Source: an uncultured Haloferula sp.
GTDB lineage: Bacteria > Verrucomicrobiota > Verrucomicrobiia > Verrucomicrobiales > Akkermansiaceae
Assembly (NCBI GenBank): GCA_965652295.1
Contig: CBFGTS010000007.1
Coordinates: forward strand, 64,001 to 128,000
Length of the DNA stretch: 64,000 bases
Direction of reading: 5' to 3'
A program made the position numbers. Every line of letters begins with the position of its first letter. Position 1 is the stretch's first letter. Below are positions 21,001 through 42,000 of the stretch, piece after piece.

Positions 21001-24000
21001 CCATCTTCCGCCCGCCCCGTCGGGGCAAACCAAGAAATTCCGGTGTAGCTCAGCGGTAGAGCGGGTGGCTGTTAACCACTAGGTCGTAGGTTCGAACCCT
21101 ACCGCCGGAGCCAATGAAGGGCGCTGATTCTCAATGAGTCAGCGCCCTTCGCCTTTTTCGGGTGGAGTCAGACTGAACACTCAGACTGAACGCTTGTGCT
21201 GGCACGGCTGTCCCTTGAAGCACGGTGTCCTCCTGATATGGAAGGAGGAGCATGTCCGACGAAACTTTCAATGCTCTCCAGCTGATTCTTCAATGCCTCG
21301 GTTTGGTGGTTGGGGTGGTGCTCTTCGTTGCCGCGGTGTGGCGCGATGACTTCAAAGCGCGAAGGGTGAAGCCCGAGCTGAAACTCGTTCCAGAGGATAT
21401 CCCTAAAGGAGAGCGAACCACGGTGTACCAGAGGGGGAGTGGATTCCGTAGGAGAGAGAGCTACCGAAGGAGCGAGGAAGAGGAGTCGGAATCTACCGAT
21501 GCCCCAGATGACCGGGATTCGCGCGATGAGAGCCACGATGGTTCATCTTCCAGGTCTGATGGAACCCCCGCGTTTTATTGGCACCTCAAGCTGGTGAACG
21601 AAAGGCCTTGGGTTGTAGCCAAGAACGTGGAGCTTCGGCTACTAAAGCTCTCGGTTCGCGAAGGTAGTGAGAGGACTTCCGAGCGGCCGTTGTCCGGATC
21701 GTTGCCGATGATTCAAAAAGGAGGCGAGCATATCGCCGACGTGGGCTACAAGAGCATCAACTGCGGGCTGGTTCGCCTGGTAGCCGGGTGCGGCCTGCAA
21801 TTGCGGATAGCTGGCCGTATTCCCAATAATCTCCGGCCCCGGCTGTACGATCCAGGATCGATGGAGCTCGTGTTGCAGGCCCAAGGCGACAACGCTGTGA
21901 GCAATACCCTCATCGTCCAGATCGACTGGGACGGCGGATTTCCTGATTGGGATGATGGAGCGGACTGTGTGAGGTTCAATGTCCGAGAGGTTTACGATGG
22001 ATCGTGGATCTGAGTGCGTTCGCAATCAGGTGGCGGTCCTTGGTCTTGACCTAGGTGACAAAAACCTTCGAATGGTCGAAGTTTTCTCGGCAAGGCACGA
22101 GGTAGCCGACCCTCGTAACCGTTTCGCCTCCATGAATGTCATCAAAATTCTCCGCCTTTTGCCCGTTCTATGGCTGGTGAGCTGCGCGACTTCCAACGTC
22201 ATTTCGTGCGGCCCTGACACCTTCATGGTGACATCGTCGGGAGCTGGTTTCGACACCGGTTCAGTGAGAGAGAATTGCTTTAAAAAGGCGAATGACTTCT
22301 GCGAGGAACGCGACCTGGTCATGATGCCAGTTGCCATCGATGTCCAAGGCGGAGAGCTGGGCAAACGCCCGCCAACAGCTGAACTCACATTTCGCGCTCT
22401 CAGGCAGGGAGATCCAGAGATCGGGCGCCCAAATCTTGAGAAGCCCGATGCCATCATCCGCATCGAATCCCGCTGAGGAAACTTGTCCGAAAAGGTAAGT
22501 CGAGGGAGGAGCTCGGTTGAAAGCCCTGCCCTCGGTCACGAAGGCGGGGCAGGTTTCGAGAGAGCGCGAGGCTGCTCAGAGAGGTGAGACGTAGCCAAAC
22601 GAAGCGTATTCAAGCCGATGAGGCTGTCGACGAGGAATGAGGGGCATGGGTCGCGGAGAGGCTCTCGGATGGCGAATCCGTTACGGTTTGTTACGGTTTG
22701 TTACGGTTTGTTACGGTGTGGAGCCCCGTACGCCACTGATTTCGAGAGCGGCAGGCAGGGGAGAACGTTCGTTTACGCTCGCCGAGAGAGGCAGAGGGTC
22801 GCGGTGAACCGTCGCGGCACCTCTCACGCAGCCATGGCACCACCTACGAAGGGACGGTACCAGAGACTTCCAAAACGGTGAAGAGGCCGACCTCGGCATG
22901 GTCGGAGGATTCGAGGAGCTTTCGTTGGAGAATTTCGTTCATTGGAGTTGAGGTGGTCGGTTGGAGGCCCCGCCGGCGTGTGCCAGCGGGGCTCTGGATT
23001 CGGGACCACGCACTCCTCCCAGGTGGAGCGTGGTTCCAATTTTACTGGGCCTCTCTCATTTTCATGGCGGCCCAATACAGCTCGCCTTCCTTTCGAGCCC
23101 AAAAGGCTTTCAACACGGCAATCTGTTGGAGCTTCAGCACCGTCGTTCCGGCATGGACGGCCATGATTTTCAGGCGATTGAAGGTTCTCGGATTCGAATA
23201 AAGGACGTCCAGGACTGCCAGCTTTCCGTTTCTGAAGTTCACGTTCTCCCGCTCCTTGAGCCAGAGTTTAACGATGCCGCTCCTTCCAGCTTCCCGGAGT
23301 TCGTCGTCATCGCTGAAAAACCCATAGCTGAGAATGGCGAAGTGGTTTTCAACGTCCCGGTCGAAATTCTCGCGACACTCTGGACGCGTAGCGAAATGCT
23401 TCTCAAGATAGTCCTTGATTCGGAAGGGAATCGGAACCTTCGCGACCACGCCGCTCGCTCCGGAATGGAGCGGGCTCACATCAGCACGGTTCCGTCTGGG
23501 AATCTCCACGGTGAGGGTTTCGAGCTTCCGCGGGCTCTTCTTCGGAGTGGTGACGGCCGTGGTGGCGGTGGGAGGTTCTGCGGTGTGATTCATCTTTGAG
23601 TCGGGTTGTTGGTTTCGGAGGCGGTAGGCGGTCAGGGCTGTTGCTGTGGATCCGCCGGAGGCAAGAAGGCGGCCTTGTAGTCGGTGAGGGTGACGTAGTG
23701 GTCGCGGTGGCCGTCGCGGATGATGCGGCACCGTTTGGCGAGCTGTCGCTGAGTGACGCCGGCGAGGTGGCAGGCCACCGGGACGGGAAGGCGGCGGAGA
23801 GCGTCGGGGTCGCCGATAGCCTCGAGCATCCGGTCGGCGACGATTTCGGCGGCTCGTCCGATGATTTCCCGGCGCTCTGACGGTGAGAAGTTCATGATGG
23901 AGCGATGAGGTGCGGGTTGCTTCCGGATCAGAGTCCAGCCGTTGGAGCATGGTGGGCGTGAAAGCGCTTCAATGATTCAACCCGGTAGGTGAGTGAGGCC

Positions 24001-39000: not shown

Positions 39001-42000
39001 CGTTGGCCTTGGCGAGTCCCGCATCGACCGCGTCGCGGAGGGCCCGGCGGAGGCACCGGAGGTCAAGGTTGGCGGTGGCGGCTGTGACGGTGCGGCCGCT
39101 GCCCTTCACCTTGGTCTTCACGATCTTGCCGATGGCCTTCTCAATGTCCGCCTGTTTGAGGTCTCCGACGGCGCTGGCGGCGAGCTTCGGACCGAGAGCG
39201 GCCACGATGCGGCGTTCCATGTCCTTATAGACCCGGAGGGTGCTCTCGGAGACGTGCGGGGCCTGGCGTTTCACCCAGCCGGCGAGGTGTTCCGCGAGGG
39301 TGACGTCCACAAAATCCGGGTTCGCCACCTTGTGGAGCTTTCGGATGAGTTCCTCAGCCCGGGCAAGGGTGAGTTCGCCGGCCGCGGCTTCCCGGGTGGC
39401 GGCATCCACTACCGCGGCAAAGGCCTTGGGGAGGTGGGAGTTGCTCTTCCGCTTCTCGCGCTCCTTCGCCTCGAAGTCGGCAGCGATCTCGCGGGCCTCA
39501 CGCTTCTTGGGTGTCCTGGTCGACCTCGAAATCCGCTTCCCGTCGGCATCGATGAAGCGGGCGAACCAGTTCGGGTTGTCGGGATCTCGGTAGAGGGTAG
39601 CCATCGGAGCGGGGCTGACTGAACACGATACTGAACAGACTGAACAGGAAAGCACGGGAAAAGTGTTCAGTTGGCCTAGAATCCATTGCGGCTCTAAGGC
39701 TGTGGTGTAATAGGTCGTAGGTTCGAACCCTACCGCCGGAGCCAATGAAGGGCGCTGATTCTCAACGAGTCAGCGCCCTTCGCCTTTCCTGAGGGCGAAA
39801 TCGAGGTGAACATTCGTGAAAGAAATGCGCGGCGATTTGCCTCGTGATCCGGATAGTGGACGGGAAGATTTCGTTTTGATGAAAAACCTGGAAGATGCCT
39901 TTATCGAGCTTGATGACGCCTTGGAGCGCGCAGTCGCAGCCGGTCTTGCCCTGAGGCAGTTGAGGACCAGTCGGATCCACGAAGTGTGGACTCCCGACAT
40001 CGGCTCCGAACTCGAGCCTCTCCTCAAGGAGATGTCGGATGCCTGCCATCTGCTGTACCAGGCAAATGAGACGGTCGAACTCATGAACCGGGAACGACTC
40101 AACTCCGCCGTATCGAGAGACGCTTGAGTTTCACCCCGCGCCGCTTTCGGCGCTCGGGCATGCTGTTGGGAGGTGCCCTTTTTTTCAACGTGGAGCGGCC
40201 AATCTTTCCAGAGCGGTGCGGAGAACGGGATCGGTCCAGTCGTCAAGGCGGCGCTCTTCTTCGGCGGTGAGCGAGGTTCGGCGGAAAGAGAGAGCGATCT
40301 TCTCGCGGGTGGCGTCATCGGTTTCCACGGTCACGTCGGGCTCGATCCCGGTGAGATGGGGTGTCCTGCCACTGGGGGTGTGGTAGGTGGCGATGGTGAG
40401 GCGCAGGGCAGTGCCGCCGCCCATCGGGATGATGTTCTGAACCGAGCCTTTCCCGTAGGAGAGTTCACCGATGACTTCGGCCCGCTTGAGATCCTGCAAT
40501 GCTCCCGCCGTAAGTTCGGAGGCGGACGCGGAGCCGCGATCGATGAGGACGACGAGCGGGTAGTCACGCTTCTGGCGCTGTCGGTCCGGAGTCCGGAGGG
40601 TTTCATCGGTCCCGCCACGGGCGCGGGTGGTGACGACTTCAGTGTCGGGCGGCAGAAAAAGACCGAGGATTTTCACCGTGGCGGCGAGCGATCCGCCGGG
40701 GTTGCCGCGGAGGTCGAGGATGAGGCGCTGCATGCCGCCTTCTTCCATTTCGTCGAGAGAGGCCTCGATTTCACGCGGAGCGGCGTCGGTGAATTCCGCG
40801 AGCCGAAGGTAACCGGTGTCGGTCTCGGGGATCAGGTGGAAATCAGTCACCGCGCGGGTGGGGACAGCGTGGTGGGTGAGTTCGACCTCGATCGGCTTCG
40901 GCGCGGCAGGGGACTTGAGTGTCAAGGTGGAGGTCTCGCCGGGTTCCTGGCGGAGGGCGTTGAGGGTGGCGGCGAGATCGGTCACCGGAAGCCCGTCGAT
41001 TTCCAAAAGAGCCGAGCCCGGGATCAGCTCGGCGGCGGTGGCAGGGGAGCCGGGGAGGACTTGGGCGAGGTAGGCACCGTCGTCGCGCCACCCGAGGACG
41101 AGGCCGAGGGATGGAAGCGAAGGGTCGAGGTCGGGATCGGCCTTCATCATGGCCGCCATTTCCGGGTGGATGAAGGATGAGTGGGGATCGAGCGAGGCGA
41201 GCATGCCTTCCAGCGCGTGATTCACGAGGCGGTCGTAGGCCAGCTTGTCGACATCAGGGTGGCGCTGGCGGACCTGTTCGAGCACCTCGACGAAACGCTC
41301 GATCGCCGGATAGGCGGCTTCCTCCGGATCCGGCGGGGATTGGGCGAGAAGCGGGGTGCAGAGGGAGAGGAGAAGCAGATGTCGCACGCGAGGATGTTGC
41401 CGATTCCACGCGCTGGTGCGAAGGGAGAAGTGGGGTGGTGTTAATCGGTGTGCCGGCGGAGCCAGGCTGCCGCGTACCCGCAGATGGGGCGGATTTTGAG
41501 GCCGCGGGCGCGGGCGATTTCCACAAGTCCCTGCATCAGGCGCCCGGCGGTGCCCTGACCCCGTAGGGCGGGGTCGGCCTCGACGTGGGGAATCACCAGG
41601 GTGTCGCCCTCAAGGCGGTAATCGGCGAAGGCGAGCTTGTCCTGCTCGACCAGCTCGAAGCGCTGGAGCCTGGGGTTGTCCGTGACGCCATACATGACTC
41701 AGATGCGGGTCAGCCAGGTCTCGGCATCGGTCTCGGCGCTGAGGGGGAAGGCTTTGACTTCGAGATTGGGGAAAAGATGCCCTTCCCACTCGCTGACATT
41801 TCGCAGCCAGTTTTTGTCGGCCAGGATGGCGGCGCGCCGGAATCGCTTCATGAGGTGCAACATCTTCGGCATGCGGGAGATCTCCAAGGCCATCGCTCCC
41901 GGCGTGGGGATGTGGAAGTCGTCGATGCGATAGAGCATCGTGCCGGTCCCGTCCTCGATCGTTTCGGCCTGGGCGGCAAATTCATCGAGAACCTCGCGCA

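Follow-up and report, generated by a model that had tools for sequence, protein, structure and literature searches.

An element integrated at tRNA-Asn

The window (the whole 64,000-nt stretch of DNA analysed here) contains an element of 18.6 kb that is seated in a tRNA-Asn gene and bounded by two direct repeats, attL and attR, whose starts lie 18,631 nt apart. The repeats are 92% identical over 90 nt, and all of the mismatches except one fall in the first 14 nt, leaving one base that differs in the last 75 nt. Outside the putative virion genes, the following features can be seen.

21039..21113, + strand: tRNA-Asn(gtt), the integration target, its 3' part within attL (ARAGORN)
21067..21156: attL, left direct repeat, comprising the 3' part of the tRNA and 43 nt downstream (repeat search)
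21252..22013, + strand: 253-aa accessory protein, N-terminus hydrophobic by eye
22132..22476, + strand: 114-aa putative lipoprotein, accessory, with a lipobox-like LVSC seen by eye in the translation
22680..22719: four tandem copies of the 10-nt unit GTTACGGTTT (repeat search)
23042..23593, − strand: 183-aa protein without a Pfam or PHROG family
23632..23895, − strand: 87-aa protein, HTH-like stretch by eye, kept in five of the seven headless elements described below
23928..24437, − strand: 169-aa protein with homologues in the G616 and G714 elements
24706..25026, − strand: 106-aa protein without a family, directly downstream of the giant gene
34834-35319 and 35097-35492, − strand: two small overlapping ORFs with homologues in the G563 and G616 elements
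35360..36235, − strand: lambda-O-like replication initiator, HTH_36, 291 aa (E 3.9e-21)
35822..35946: four 20-nt iterons inside the O-like gene, a putative origin (repeat search)
36590..36835, − strand: excisionase/AlpA-like regulator, 81 aa (phrog_66, E 8.7e-5, a weak match)
36905..37750, − strand: 281-aa protein, not conserved in relatives
37758..38180, − strand: 140-aa protein with a C-terminal HTH_3 domain, adjoining HicA
38177..38377, − strand: HicA toxin (PF07927, E 4.9e-12)
38417..39745, − strand: tyrosine integrase (PHROGs, E 2e-55)
39698..39787: attR, right direct repeat (repeat search)

The tRNA-Asn, direct repeats, integrase, HicA, O-like initiator and four iterons listed in a preliminary description of this locus were all present on re-analysis, and its PHROGs matches (integrase, O-like, short tail fiber, internal virion protein and lysozyme) were reproduced, as was its excisionase-like ORF, here a weak match. 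The main ORFs are all open and the iterons are intact. Several of the long ORFs are affected by GC-rich over-extension, and after trimming the likely genes encode 183, 169, 162 and 291 aa. Since the gene for the 140-aa HTH_3 protein adjoins that for HicA, we infer that its product, earlier called a ‘cI-like’ regulator, is probably the HicB-type antitoxin.

Neither the 253-aa accessory protein nor the 114-aa putative lipoprotein has a family match in Pfam or PHROGs, and the former was not found in the related headless elements. The 281-aa protein is likewise without a Pfam or PHROG family and was not matched by capsid HMMs. The homologue of the 87-aa protein in the G714 element weakly matches the excisionase family phrog_66 (E 8e-4).

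Near-identical copies of the element are found in metagenomes of five studies. One soil metagenome contig joins position 21079 to 39711, an intact tRNA followed by the right flank (24 unambiguous letters), and could conceivably represent an empty site. In soil metagenome variants, positions 22699-22881 are swapped for 28 other letters. No sequence related to the element was found among IMG/VR viral contigs or JGI metagenome contigs, in agreement with the earlier statement that viral contigs hold no relative.

Absence of head genes

The assembly to which the window belongs is 98% complete and comprises 35 contigs. None of PF03354, PF03237, PF05065 or PF04860 occurs anywhere in it, and custom HMMs of TerL, portal, scaffold, capsid and tail tubular A and B, built from related prophages, gave no match in the whole genome. 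The reported absence of terminase, portal and capsid from the assembly was thus borne out by both the Pfam and the custom HMM searches. TerS was also undetectable in the element (best E 2.5).

A probable internal-core module of podoviruses

Four adjacent genes of the element have counterparts in the structural operons of podoviruses.

34349..34837, − strand: 162-aa putative virion protein in the gp13 position (phrog_12032 ‘short tail fiber’, E 5.1e-32)
33840..34352, − strand: T7 gp14-like internal virion protein, 170 aa
31957..33837, − strand: gp15-position protein, 626 aa, with a C-terminal GH24 muramidase
25054..31890, − strand: giant protein in the gp16 position, 2,278 aa, hallmark of the headless family

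A complete temperate podovirus prophage, att-bounded and 36.3 kb in length, was found in a Luteolibacter MAG (G401:C3:16204-52550). Its genes run in the order TerS, TerL-like, portal (phrog_332, E 9e-107), scaffold, major head protein, tail tubular A, tail tubular B, a 148-aa protein, gp14, a 699-aa lysozyme protein, a 2,287-aa giant, a T7-type fibre, endolysin and integrase. BLAST searches with its proteins showed that tail tubular A/B and the major capsid protein share the fetched stretch with gp14 in nine of nine loci (G450, G540, G327, G539, G448, G634, G652, G577 and G424), directly upstream of gp14 in most of them.

Like the window element, the G401 prophage targets tRNA-Asn, with an integrase that is 58% identical. 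It also encodes homologues of gp14 (33%), of the lysozyme protein (53%, C-terminal 211 aa) and of the C-terminal part of the giant (24%), together with an O-like HTH initiator that gave a fragment match. It differs, however, in its 36.3 kb length, in carrying TerS, TerL, portal, scaffold, capsid, tubular A/B, fibre and endolysin, and in the orientation of its structural module relative to the integrase, which is opposite to that in the window.

The 162-aa protein is 44-51% identical to proteins whose genes separate tail tubular B from gp14 in G450 and G540, and its homologues directly precede the ejection genes not only in complete prophages but also in Ralstonia phage RSK1. Its earlier designation as a short tail fibre reflects the phrog_12032 label only; its position is that of T7 gp13. 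The gp14-like protein matches phrog_418 (E 5e-15) and PF24072 T7_gp14 (29.4 bits against a cut-off of 27), and is 51-53% identical to gp14 of the complete prophages G450 and G540 of the same genus. For the gp15-position protein, an upstream start from which the N-terminus is conserved gives 626 aa in place of the 603 first reported; the C-terminal lysozyme domain stands (Phage_lysozyme, aa 501-618, E 2.8e-16). Among the best cultured-phage matches of this domain are proteins labelled ‘internal virion protein with endolysin domain’ and ‘ejection protein’. The N-terminal part (aa 20-350) is predicted to be all-helical (pLDDT about 85-93), and PDB sequence and fold searches returned nothing beyond the muramidase.

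In complete 36-kb podovirus prophages of the same bacterial family, the homologues of these four genes come immediately after the tail tubular genes, and we therefore assign all four to an internal-core/ejection module. The virion role proposed for the gp15-position protein and the giant is based on gene order in relatives, the gp14 family match and depositors’ annotations. As in T7 and phiKMV, a gp14 family member is present, three consecutive genes of rising size follow tail tubular B (in the complete relatives) and one protein bears a peptidoglycan hydrolase domain, which in T7 is located on gp16 and in phiKMV at the C-terminus of gp36. In contrast to T7, the N-terminal part of the gp15-position protein and the giant lack detectable sequence or fold similarity to solved proteins, those of the T7 core included, the giant is much longer than gp16 (about 1,300 aa), and the core genes of the window sit in an element without any head.

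The giant protein, which has 76 homologues, shares 46-79% identity with its counterparts in the six other headless elements; that of G637 is likewise 2,278 aa long and 54% identical over the full length. In the C-terminal part of the window giant, aa 1183-2099 match the giant of a complete podovirus prophage at 24-26% identity. Neither Pfam nor PHROGs assigns the protein to a family, a PDB sequence search gave no match, and searches with 500-aa pieces at E≤1 recognised no domain. The preliminary description as a 2,278-aa polyvalent protein is right in length, but no polyvalent domain was recognised in the window giant itself; close homologues carry LPD3 (5 of 13), LPD23, RadC, MuF_C or ART-PolyVal. 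The named Atlas clusters nearest to the central region are all LPD/PBECR-type giants (scores 0.76-0.87, to be taken as leads only). Comparison of the window and G081 giants gave a dN/dS of 0.20 at a dS of 0.88, with low ratios throughout the protein, so that purifying selection acts on the giant.

A family of headless elements

At least seven headless elements were identified in two genera, all from one bacterial family and hence not independent samples. Six are complete; their tRNA att repeats are intact and 30-90 nt long, and the elements measure 18.1, 18.2, 18.6, 19.2, 19.9 and 27.7 kb (the last being G081), so that five of the six fall within 18-20 kb. The seven lie next to tRNA genes for Asn, Tyr, Val, Tyr, Ala, Ala and Ala, and a tyrosine integrase is present in all but one, which is cut by a contig end. 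All seven sampled genomes with a giant at least 46% identical hold it in a headless element beside a tRNA; the close giants P0003-P0011 lie outside the genome sample. Within the sampled genomes these giants cluster tightly and occur in headless elements only.

HMMs of TerL, portal, scaffold, capsid and tubular A/B gave no match in five of the seven element regions (E≤1, filters off). The only proteins of the G401 prophage that G081 ORFs matched in blastp were TerS, the gp13-position protein, gp14, the lysozyme protein, the giant and an integrase. A gp15-like gene is present in every complete element, and five of these six encode a small terminase without a large one. Replication and integrase modules vary among members. 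The idea that such elements bring their own ejection proteins thus holds across the complete elements for the gp15-like protein and the giant, but not for gp14, which, with the gp13-position protein, occurs only in the window and G081 elements and is not a core gene.

In the window element, the gp13-position protein and gp14 are closest to those of prophages of its own genus (51-53%), and gp15 and the giant track the satellite lineage. The gp15 of a prophage-like locus (G448) nests within the satellite gp15 clade, hinting at a shared gene pool. No non-coding sequence common to the window element and candidate helper prophages was found.

A probable helper-dependent satellite and its alternatives

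We consider, with somewhat better than even confidence, that the element in the window belongs to a family of helper-dependent phage satellites in Akkermansiaceae (Verrucomicrobiota) that had not been described before; the headless elements most likely ride in helper phage particles. The original proposal of a satellite without head genes is strengthened by a family of at least seven members, the position of the module in prophages, TerS without TerL in five of six complete elements and purifying selection.

An integrative element of another, helper-independent kind, in which gp15 and the giant have a non-virion (secreted or defence) role or delivery is non-phage, for example by conjugative mobilisation, seems unlikely to us. 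Polyvalent proteins do occur in conjugative elements as well as in phages (PMC5512222), and helper-type portal or capsid genes were found in none of the seven host genomes in a search whose positive controls (G450, G401 and G448) gave matches. However, the element proteins include no relaxase, coupling protein or T4SS family, while TerS in five of six complete members, gp14 in two and a virion-type muramidase indicate encapsidation, and homologous modules lie inside the structural operons of complete podoviruses.

It is also rather improbable that the satellite family is real but the window copy transfer-defective, having lost TerS and persisting only vertically, stabilised by HicAB. The small terminase of five of the six complete members is indeed missing here, and the region that follows the giant, which encodes it in G081 and G637, holds only small unassigned ORFs in the window. 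Against this stand the open main ORFs and intact iterons, att repeats one base apart in their last 75 nt, and the near-identical metagenome copies with the possible empty site. Cos-type PICIs and P4 are satellites without TerS, which also counts against such a defect.

A prophage remnant that has lost its head, tail and terminase genes, the alternative named at the outset, fits the gene list by itself, and a complete prophage has a related integrase and uses the same att site, but this reading is largely excluded and in our view very improbable: a one-off decayed prophage is hard to reconcile with a headless architecture that recurs in seven elements at four tRNA species with differing integrases and replication modules, mostly at 18-20 kb, and with a tight giant group that in the sampled genomes is exclusive to them and is under purifying selection, and the opposite orientation of the module means that a single deletion cannot give the window layout.

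Relationship to known systems

The helper-dependent satellites proposed here resemble PICI/SaPI elements as described in PMC10085698 in being integrated, with an integrase at one end, their own regulators and replication module, no capsid, portal or tail genes and accessory genes at the ends, and, in five of the six complete elements, in having a small terminase without a large one. They differ in carrying virion-internal genes (the gp15-like protein with its muramidase and the giant, plus gp14 and the gp13-position protein in two members), in their larger size of 18-28 kb, a third to 40% of which is one gene, and in replication modules of O-type, DnaD/DnaC or DnaB rather than Pri-Rep (PMC10085698). 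No capsid-remodelling gene was recognised in them, and their presumed helper is a podovirus, a stem (‘podovir’) absent from the main text of PMC10085698.

Marine VEIMEs, virion-encapsidated satellites integrated in bacterial genomes including those of Verrucomicrobia (PMC9618062), also lack major capsid genes, and the present family is accordingly not the first in Verrucomicrobiota, as had been claimed. Packaging of multimers in helper-size heads, proposed for VEIMEs (PMC9618062), would fit elements of about half a helper genome. VEIMEs were, however, defined from DNA inside particles (PMC9618062), whereas the headless elements were recognised in genome sequences. The word ‘ejection’ is absent from the main text of PMC9618062, and no mention of internal virion proteins was noted there. 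With the polyvalent proteins of PMC5512222 the giant shares a position among virion genes that fits injection along with DNA, and its close homologues share their LPD, RadC, MuF_C and ART-PolyVal domains, none recognised in the window giant; the word ‘satellite’ does not occur in the main text of PMC5512222.

A model for transfer

We propose that excision and replication of the element would be induced by a helper podovirus similar to the complete 36-kb prophages of the same genus. The core proteins of the element would assemble on the helper portal inside helper procapsids, replacing or beside the helper’s own, and the helper terminase would package element DNA, possibly as two copies per head given that the element is about half a helper genome. 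The 27.7-kb G081 element departs from this size relation. In most relatives, the element-encoded TerS would redirect the helper terminase; the window copy, without TerS, would depend on a pac site that the helper recognises. At infection of a new cell, the muramidase protein and the giant would be ejected along with the DNA and open the envelope. In the manner of polyvalent proteins, they may also protect this DNA or help it to become established.

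The ends and gene content of the element

The sole tRNA gene detected in the window by ARAGORN is tRNA-Asn(gtt), and the longest direct repeat within positions 20000-41000 has its left copy starting inside this gene and extending 43 nt beyond its end. The two 90-nt copies are 92% identical, with the mismatches concentrated in the first 14 nt. Together with an integrase (phrog_1, E 2e-55), these att repeats support site-specific integration of the element at tRNA-Asn. The G+C content of the element (62.5%) is the same as that of its flanks. Since the genome as a whole has 63% G+C, many of its long ORFs are spurious or over-extended, and the gene list was therefore settled using a codon-usage score and inspection of start codons. 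The features considered here are:

21039-21113, tRNA-Asn(gtt)
21067-21156 and 39698-39787, direct (att) repeats
21252-22476, plus strand, two accessory genes beside attL
22699-22881, 10-nt tandem-repeat region
25054-31890, minus strand, 2,278-aa giant protein, in the position of T7 gp16
31957-33837, minus strand, 626-aa gp15-like protein with a lysozyme domain
33840-34352, minus strand, gp14-like internal virion protein
34349-34837, minus strand, gp13-position protein
35822-35946, four 20-nt iterons
36590-36835, 81-aa excisionase-like ORF

The family matches listed in the preliminary description were reproduced. Besides the integrase, these are HicA (PHROGs and Pfam), the O-like replication initiator (E 3.9e-21) with its four iterons, the match of the gp13-position protein to the 'short tail fiber' family phrog_12032 (E 5.1e-32), the T7 gp14-like protein (phrog_418, E 5e-15; PF24072 T7_gp14, 29.4 bits against a cut-off of 27) and the Phage_lysozyme domain, which forms the C-terminus of the 626-aa ORF. 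The excisionase-like regulator does match phrog_66 (excisionase and transcriptional regulator), but weakly (E 8.7e-5).

Of the two accessory genes, one encodes a 253-aa protein that has a hydrophobic N-terminus and a linker rich in Ser and acidic residues, the other a putative lipoprotein of 114 aa. Neither matched any family or gave a PADLOC match, and both may serve as cargo or in exclusion. PADLOC identified no defence system among 13 accessory ORFs, returning only weak HTH matches and LmuC at E 0.006. For a 281-aa protein, the nearest Atlas clusters (best score 0.90) share no Pfam family.

No head or large-terminase genes were detected in the element or its host genome

The earlier claim that the genome holds no terminase, portal or capsid gene was borne out in an assembly that is 98% complete in 35 contigs: PF03354, PF03237, PF05065 and PF04860 were unmatched genome-wide, while control genomes were positive. 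Custom HMMs made from related prophages for the large terminase subunit (TerL), portal, scaffold, capsid and tail tubular proteins A and B likewise found no match in the whole genome of the window. The large terminase, portal and major capsid protein by which a complete tailed prophage is recognised were thus detected in neither element nor genome. A six-sequence HMM for the small terminase subunit (TerS), run against all six-frame ORFs, found none in the window copy (best E value 2.5). By blastn, the element shared only coding parts, and no non-coding sequence, with the fetched prophage loci described below.

The virion-type genes correspond to the ejection block of complete podovirus prophages

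Scanning the genome collection with the 626-aa protein identified homologues within a complete prophage of a Luteolibacter MAG (G401). This prophage spans 36.3 kb, with 38-nt copies of the tRNA-Asn 3' end at its borders, and has an integrase 58% identical to that of the window element. Its genes run in the order TerS, a 559-aa TerL-like protein, portal (phrog_332, E 9e-107), scaffold/protease, major head protein (phrog_3437, E 2.6e-55), tail tubular proteins A and B, a 148-aa protein, gp14 (phrog_418, E 1.4e-29), a 699-aa protein with the same C-terminal lysozyme domain, a 2,287-aa giant, a fibre with a T7-type N-terminus, endolysin and integrase. Behind it, at G401:C3:52513-56110, the tRNA-Asn att core recurs in a third copy (24 nt, 100%), accompanied by two more integrase-like ORFs, suggesting that elements are arrayed in tandem there.

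Nine gp14 loci from outside Akkermansia were fetched for context. In all nine, a capsid protein and tail tubular proteins A and B share the fetched stretch with gp14 and in most they lie directly upstream of it. Insertions separate tubular B from gp14 in two genomes (G448 and G652). A portal was matched in five of the nine (G540, G450, G327, G634 and G577). Homologues of the module follow tail tubular B directly in G401, G450 and G424; the window element itself carries no tail genes.

The 34349-34837 product, which matches a short tail fibre family, has a 51%-identical, 164-aa counterpart in the complete genome G450 of the same genus; there it is encoded between tubular B and gp14, which is the position of T7 gp13. 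In the cultured Ralstonia phage RSK1, a homologue of this product directly precedes genes whose annotations read 'DNA ejection' and 'released from the phage upon host infection'. Among the best matches of the lysozyme domain in cultured phages are proteins labelled 'internal virion protein with endolysin domain' and 'ejection protein'. The model predicted for the 626-aa protein (mean pLDDT 73.9) combines an all-helical N-terminal part, modelled with confidence, with a GH24 muramidase; GH24 muramidases were the only specific match in fold searches (Z 13.9, rmsd 2.3 A over 122 residues). For the N-terminal part only generic helical bundles were matched, with T7 gp15 absent from the fold matches, and no PDB sequence match linked the gp15- and gp16-position proteins of the window to T7 gp15 or gp16. 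We assign the four genes at 25054-34837 to the internal-core/ejection block of a group of T7-order temperate podoviruses of the Akkermansiaceae, on the strength of one family match (gp14) and conserved position, not of demonstrated homology to T7 gp15 or gp16.

Two further loci differ from the G401 arrangement. A prophage-like region of about 60 kb in G540, another complete genome of the window's genus (G540:C1:5545001-5615000), carries TerL, portal, capsid, tubular A/B and gp14 once and then two further tandem modules. Each module comprises genes for a gp13-position protein, gp14 and a gp15-like protein (about 518 aa) as well as several pieces resembling the giant, and between the modules lies no integrase resembling that of the window. 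At G448:C1:3800001-3840000, a prophage-like locus has a gp15 that nests inside the gp15 clade of the headless elements described below and a giant of a different type. Between its gp13-position gene and gp14 stand two inserted ORFs of 300 and 693 aa on the plus strand, and the sole portal match of that genome lies 66 kb away.

The gp14 profile has matches in 83 of 401 sampled genomes of the bacterial family, which is not a tally of prophages because the gene can stand alone. At G210:C1:1873001-1913000, in a small genome of genus g2 (probably Akkermansia), a 172-178-aa gp14-like gene neighbours genes for alpha-2-macroglobulin, Fe-alcohol dehydrogenase, MGMT and citrate synthase, and this locus was rejected as a member of the family since the gene is alone among housekeeping genes. 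Gp14-like matches occur in 69 of 102 sampled g2 genomes; the neighbours were annotated at one of six such loci (G210), and the spacing looks alike in the five others. The g2 gene may be domesticated or convergent.

A family of headless elements at tRNA genes

One further copy of the 626-aa protein was found in the phylum sample (2 of 401 genomes in total), in G081, a MAG titled Haloferula sp. and of the window's genus. It belongs to an element with a different integrase and initiator, a HigB toxin and two HigA-like antitoxin genes. The element also encodes a gp13-position protein of 144 aa, gp14, a lysozyme protein of 634 aa, a giant of 2,560 aa and a small terminase (phrog_51, E 1.3e-12). When its ORFs were compared with the G401 prophage by blastp, none matched TerL, portal, scaffold, capsid or tubular A/B.

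With the C-terminal half of the giant as query, 10 of 401 family genomes matched at E<=1e-30. Beyond the window genome and G081, five genomes of genus g3 did so at E<=1e-235, the next best being 1e-40; within the window's own genus, the close form of the giant is present in 2 of 35 genomes. All five g3 loci proved to be headless elements adjoining a tRNA gene.

Table. Headless elements other than that of the window.
Host genome; tRNA gene; att repeats; length
G081; tRNA-Tyr (3' end); 87 nt, 97.7%; 27.7 kb
G637; tRNA-Val; 33 nt, 100%; 18.2 kb
G714; tRNA-Ala; 62 nt, 92%; 19.2 kb
G616; tRNA-Ala; 30 nt, 100%; 19.9 kb
G563; tRNA-Ala; 31 nt, 100%; 18.1 kb
G624; tRNA-Tyr; cut by the contig end; -

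Six-frame ORFs of at least 40 aa from the five g3 elements gave no HMM match to TerL, portal, scaffold, capsid or tubular A/B (E<=1, filters off), and gp14 is likewise absent from them. A helper-type portal or capsid was found in none of the seven hosts of headless elements; the controls G450, G401 and G448 were positive. A gp15-like gene is present in all six complete elements and a TerS homologous to that of the G401 prophage in five, G616 having an additional TerS of phrog_1482. An 87-aa protein is common to five of the seven headless elements. Integrases differ among members, as do replication modules, which comprise an O-like initiator, DnaD/DnaC loaders, DnaB helicase and a primosomal protein. 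The members come from one bacterial family and mostly from MAGs, and on this comparative evidence throughout we regard the headless state as a trait of the family.

The giant protein

No Pfam or PHROG family matched the 2,278-aa giant, including when it was searched in 500-aa pieces at E<=1, and there was no PDB sequence match. A database search returned 76 proteins, 11 of them close (46-100% identity) and carrying differing extra Pfam modules. Among 13 aligned close giants, LPD3 occurs in five and LPD23, RadC, MuF_C and ART-PolyVal in one each; the window giant has none. Distant homologues are PBECR3 proteins of Akkermansia of about 2,750 aa (23% identity over 15% of the query). For the central region the nearest named Atlas clusters are all LPD/PBECR-type giants (scores 0.76-0.87), which serve as leads only, and the fold model of the central conserved residues 440-1010 (mean pLDDT 56.3) was too poor for a fold search. 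Residues 1183-2099, in the C-terminal part, share 24-26% identity with the giant of the G401 phage; the first 1,200 aa are confined to the headless lineage.

Giant proteins of the polyvalent type have been proposed to be injected with DNA (PMC5512222, which in its main text does not use the word 'satellite'). As described there, polyvalent proteins combine at least two disparate recognised domains per polypeptide. The window giant has no Pfam family; its homologues carry LPD3, LPD23, RadC, MuF_C or ART-PolyVal.

Selection and exchange

Comparison of the giant between the window and G081 gave a dN/dS of 0.20 at a dS of 0.88, with a low ratio in each 200-codon block, which indicates that it is under purifying selection; the corresponding values were 0.26 for the lysozyme protein and 0.44 for gp14. 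The G637 giant equals the window giant in length and is 54% identical to it end to end. The gp13-position protein and gp14 of the window are 51-53% identical to those of complete prophages of its own genus, compared with 33-34% to G081 and G401, whereas its lysozyme protein and giant group with the headless lineage instead. In the gp15 tree the headless elements form two groups, and since phage proteins (those of G448, a G540 module and G327) fall among them, gp15 appears to have been exchanged with phages. A single origin of gp15 in headless elements was rejected: the tree requires three changes, and 0% of bootstrap trees unite them.

Contigs of public sequencing runs from five studies (rhizosphere, soil and sludge) contain the window element, with no RNA run among them. 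Four runs were compared with the window as assembled contigs, the depths of which do not allow presence or absence of the element to be quantified. In one soil contig 21079 is joined to 39711, such that an intact tRNA gene is followed directly by the right flank; this junction is weak, being a single contig with 24 unambiguous letters at a likeness threshold of 90. Both soil runs replace or lack the gp13-position/gp14 segment. In one, 33341-34880 (the gp15 N-terminal end, gp14 and the gp13-position gene) is swapped for 552 other letters, and in soil variants the tandem-repeat region at 22699-22881 is swapped for 28 letters, which suggests cassette exchange within one element lineage. No relative was found among IMG/VR viral contigs (queried with gp15 and giant alignments) or JGI metagenome contigs (queried with the giant alignment and P0006, a database giant close to that of the window).

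Relation to known satellites

Known satellites act on their helper by altering the size of its capsid, the specificity of packaging or the use of its tails. The account of PICIs in PMC10085698 gives their core as integrase, regulator, primase-replication, packaging interference and TerS, typically with no other structural or lysis genes. The window element shares the integrase and site-specific integration. Its candidate for an AlpA/Stl-type master regulator is the ORF with the weak phrog_66 match (E 8.7e-5), its replication module is O-like with iterons rather than of the Pri-Rep type, and the TerS that five of the six complete relatives possess was not found in it. Unlike a PICI as described there, it carries gp14, a gp13-position virion protein, a muramidase-bearing gp15-position protein and a giant. 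It differs from cfPICIs in having no capsid, portal or head-tail connector genes of its own (Pfam, PHROG and custom HMMs), and the Psu, Delta, Sid, epsilon and alpha primase-helicase proteins of P4-like satellites are not among the families matched by its ORFs (PHROG and Pfam), no search aimed at these models by name having been made. With the T7-type internal core it shares gp14 family membership (PF24072, phrog_418).

According to PMC10085698, satellites are found mostly in Proteobacteria and Firmicutes; its main text contains neither of the strings 'Verrucomicrobi' and 'podovir'. The element had been presented as potentially the first satellite in Verrucomicrobiota; this does not hold, since PMC9618062 reports virion-encapsidated satellites integrated in Verrucomicrobia. 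These VEIMEs are defined there as concatemers inside virus particles, whereas the present element is known from its sequence. The searched literature, at the level of search listings together with passages of PMC10085698, PMC9618062 and PMC5512222, contained no satellite with its own DNA-ejection machinery, and we rate the family as probable satellites with a new hijack module.

We tentatively propose, while slightly more doubtful than confident, that this satellite lineage parasitises temperate podoviruses by replacing the helper's internal core with its own gp15-type muramidase protein and an injected giant of about 2,300 aa, and in some members also with gp14/gp13-type proteins captured from the local helper lineage, such that heads built by the helper eject satellite proteins and satellite DNA. 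A helper podovirus would induce the element, which would be excised by the integrase and the Xis/AlpA-like protein and would replicate from its iterons. Its core proteins would enter helper procapsids, the helper TerL would package its DNA, redirected in most members by the element's TerS, and the muramidase protein and giant would be ejected into the next cell along with the DNA. Of the six complete elements, five have 0.50-0.55 of the length of the 36.3-kb prophage, so two copies per head would be possible; the 27.7-kb G081 element falls outside this relation. Since the window copy has no TerS, it would either use a site recognised by the helper or be defective.

If this proposal is correct, the ejectosome would be a point of hijack not described for any known satellite family, and the element would be the first satellite with an injected protein of the polyvalent type. 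The analysis further delimits T7-order temperate podoviruses as a widespread group in the Akkermansiaceae, and provides a signature with which to search for further members of the family: an integrase, replication module, TerS, gp15-like gene and giant, without head genes, in 18-20 kb at a tRNA gene. Should the elements be packaged, the podovirus internal core would be a module open to exchange, for which a parasite can supply its own version, the family would offer a natural system for how core proteins are selected for incorporation, and giant injected proteins would be tied to the establishment of a satellite rather than of a phage.
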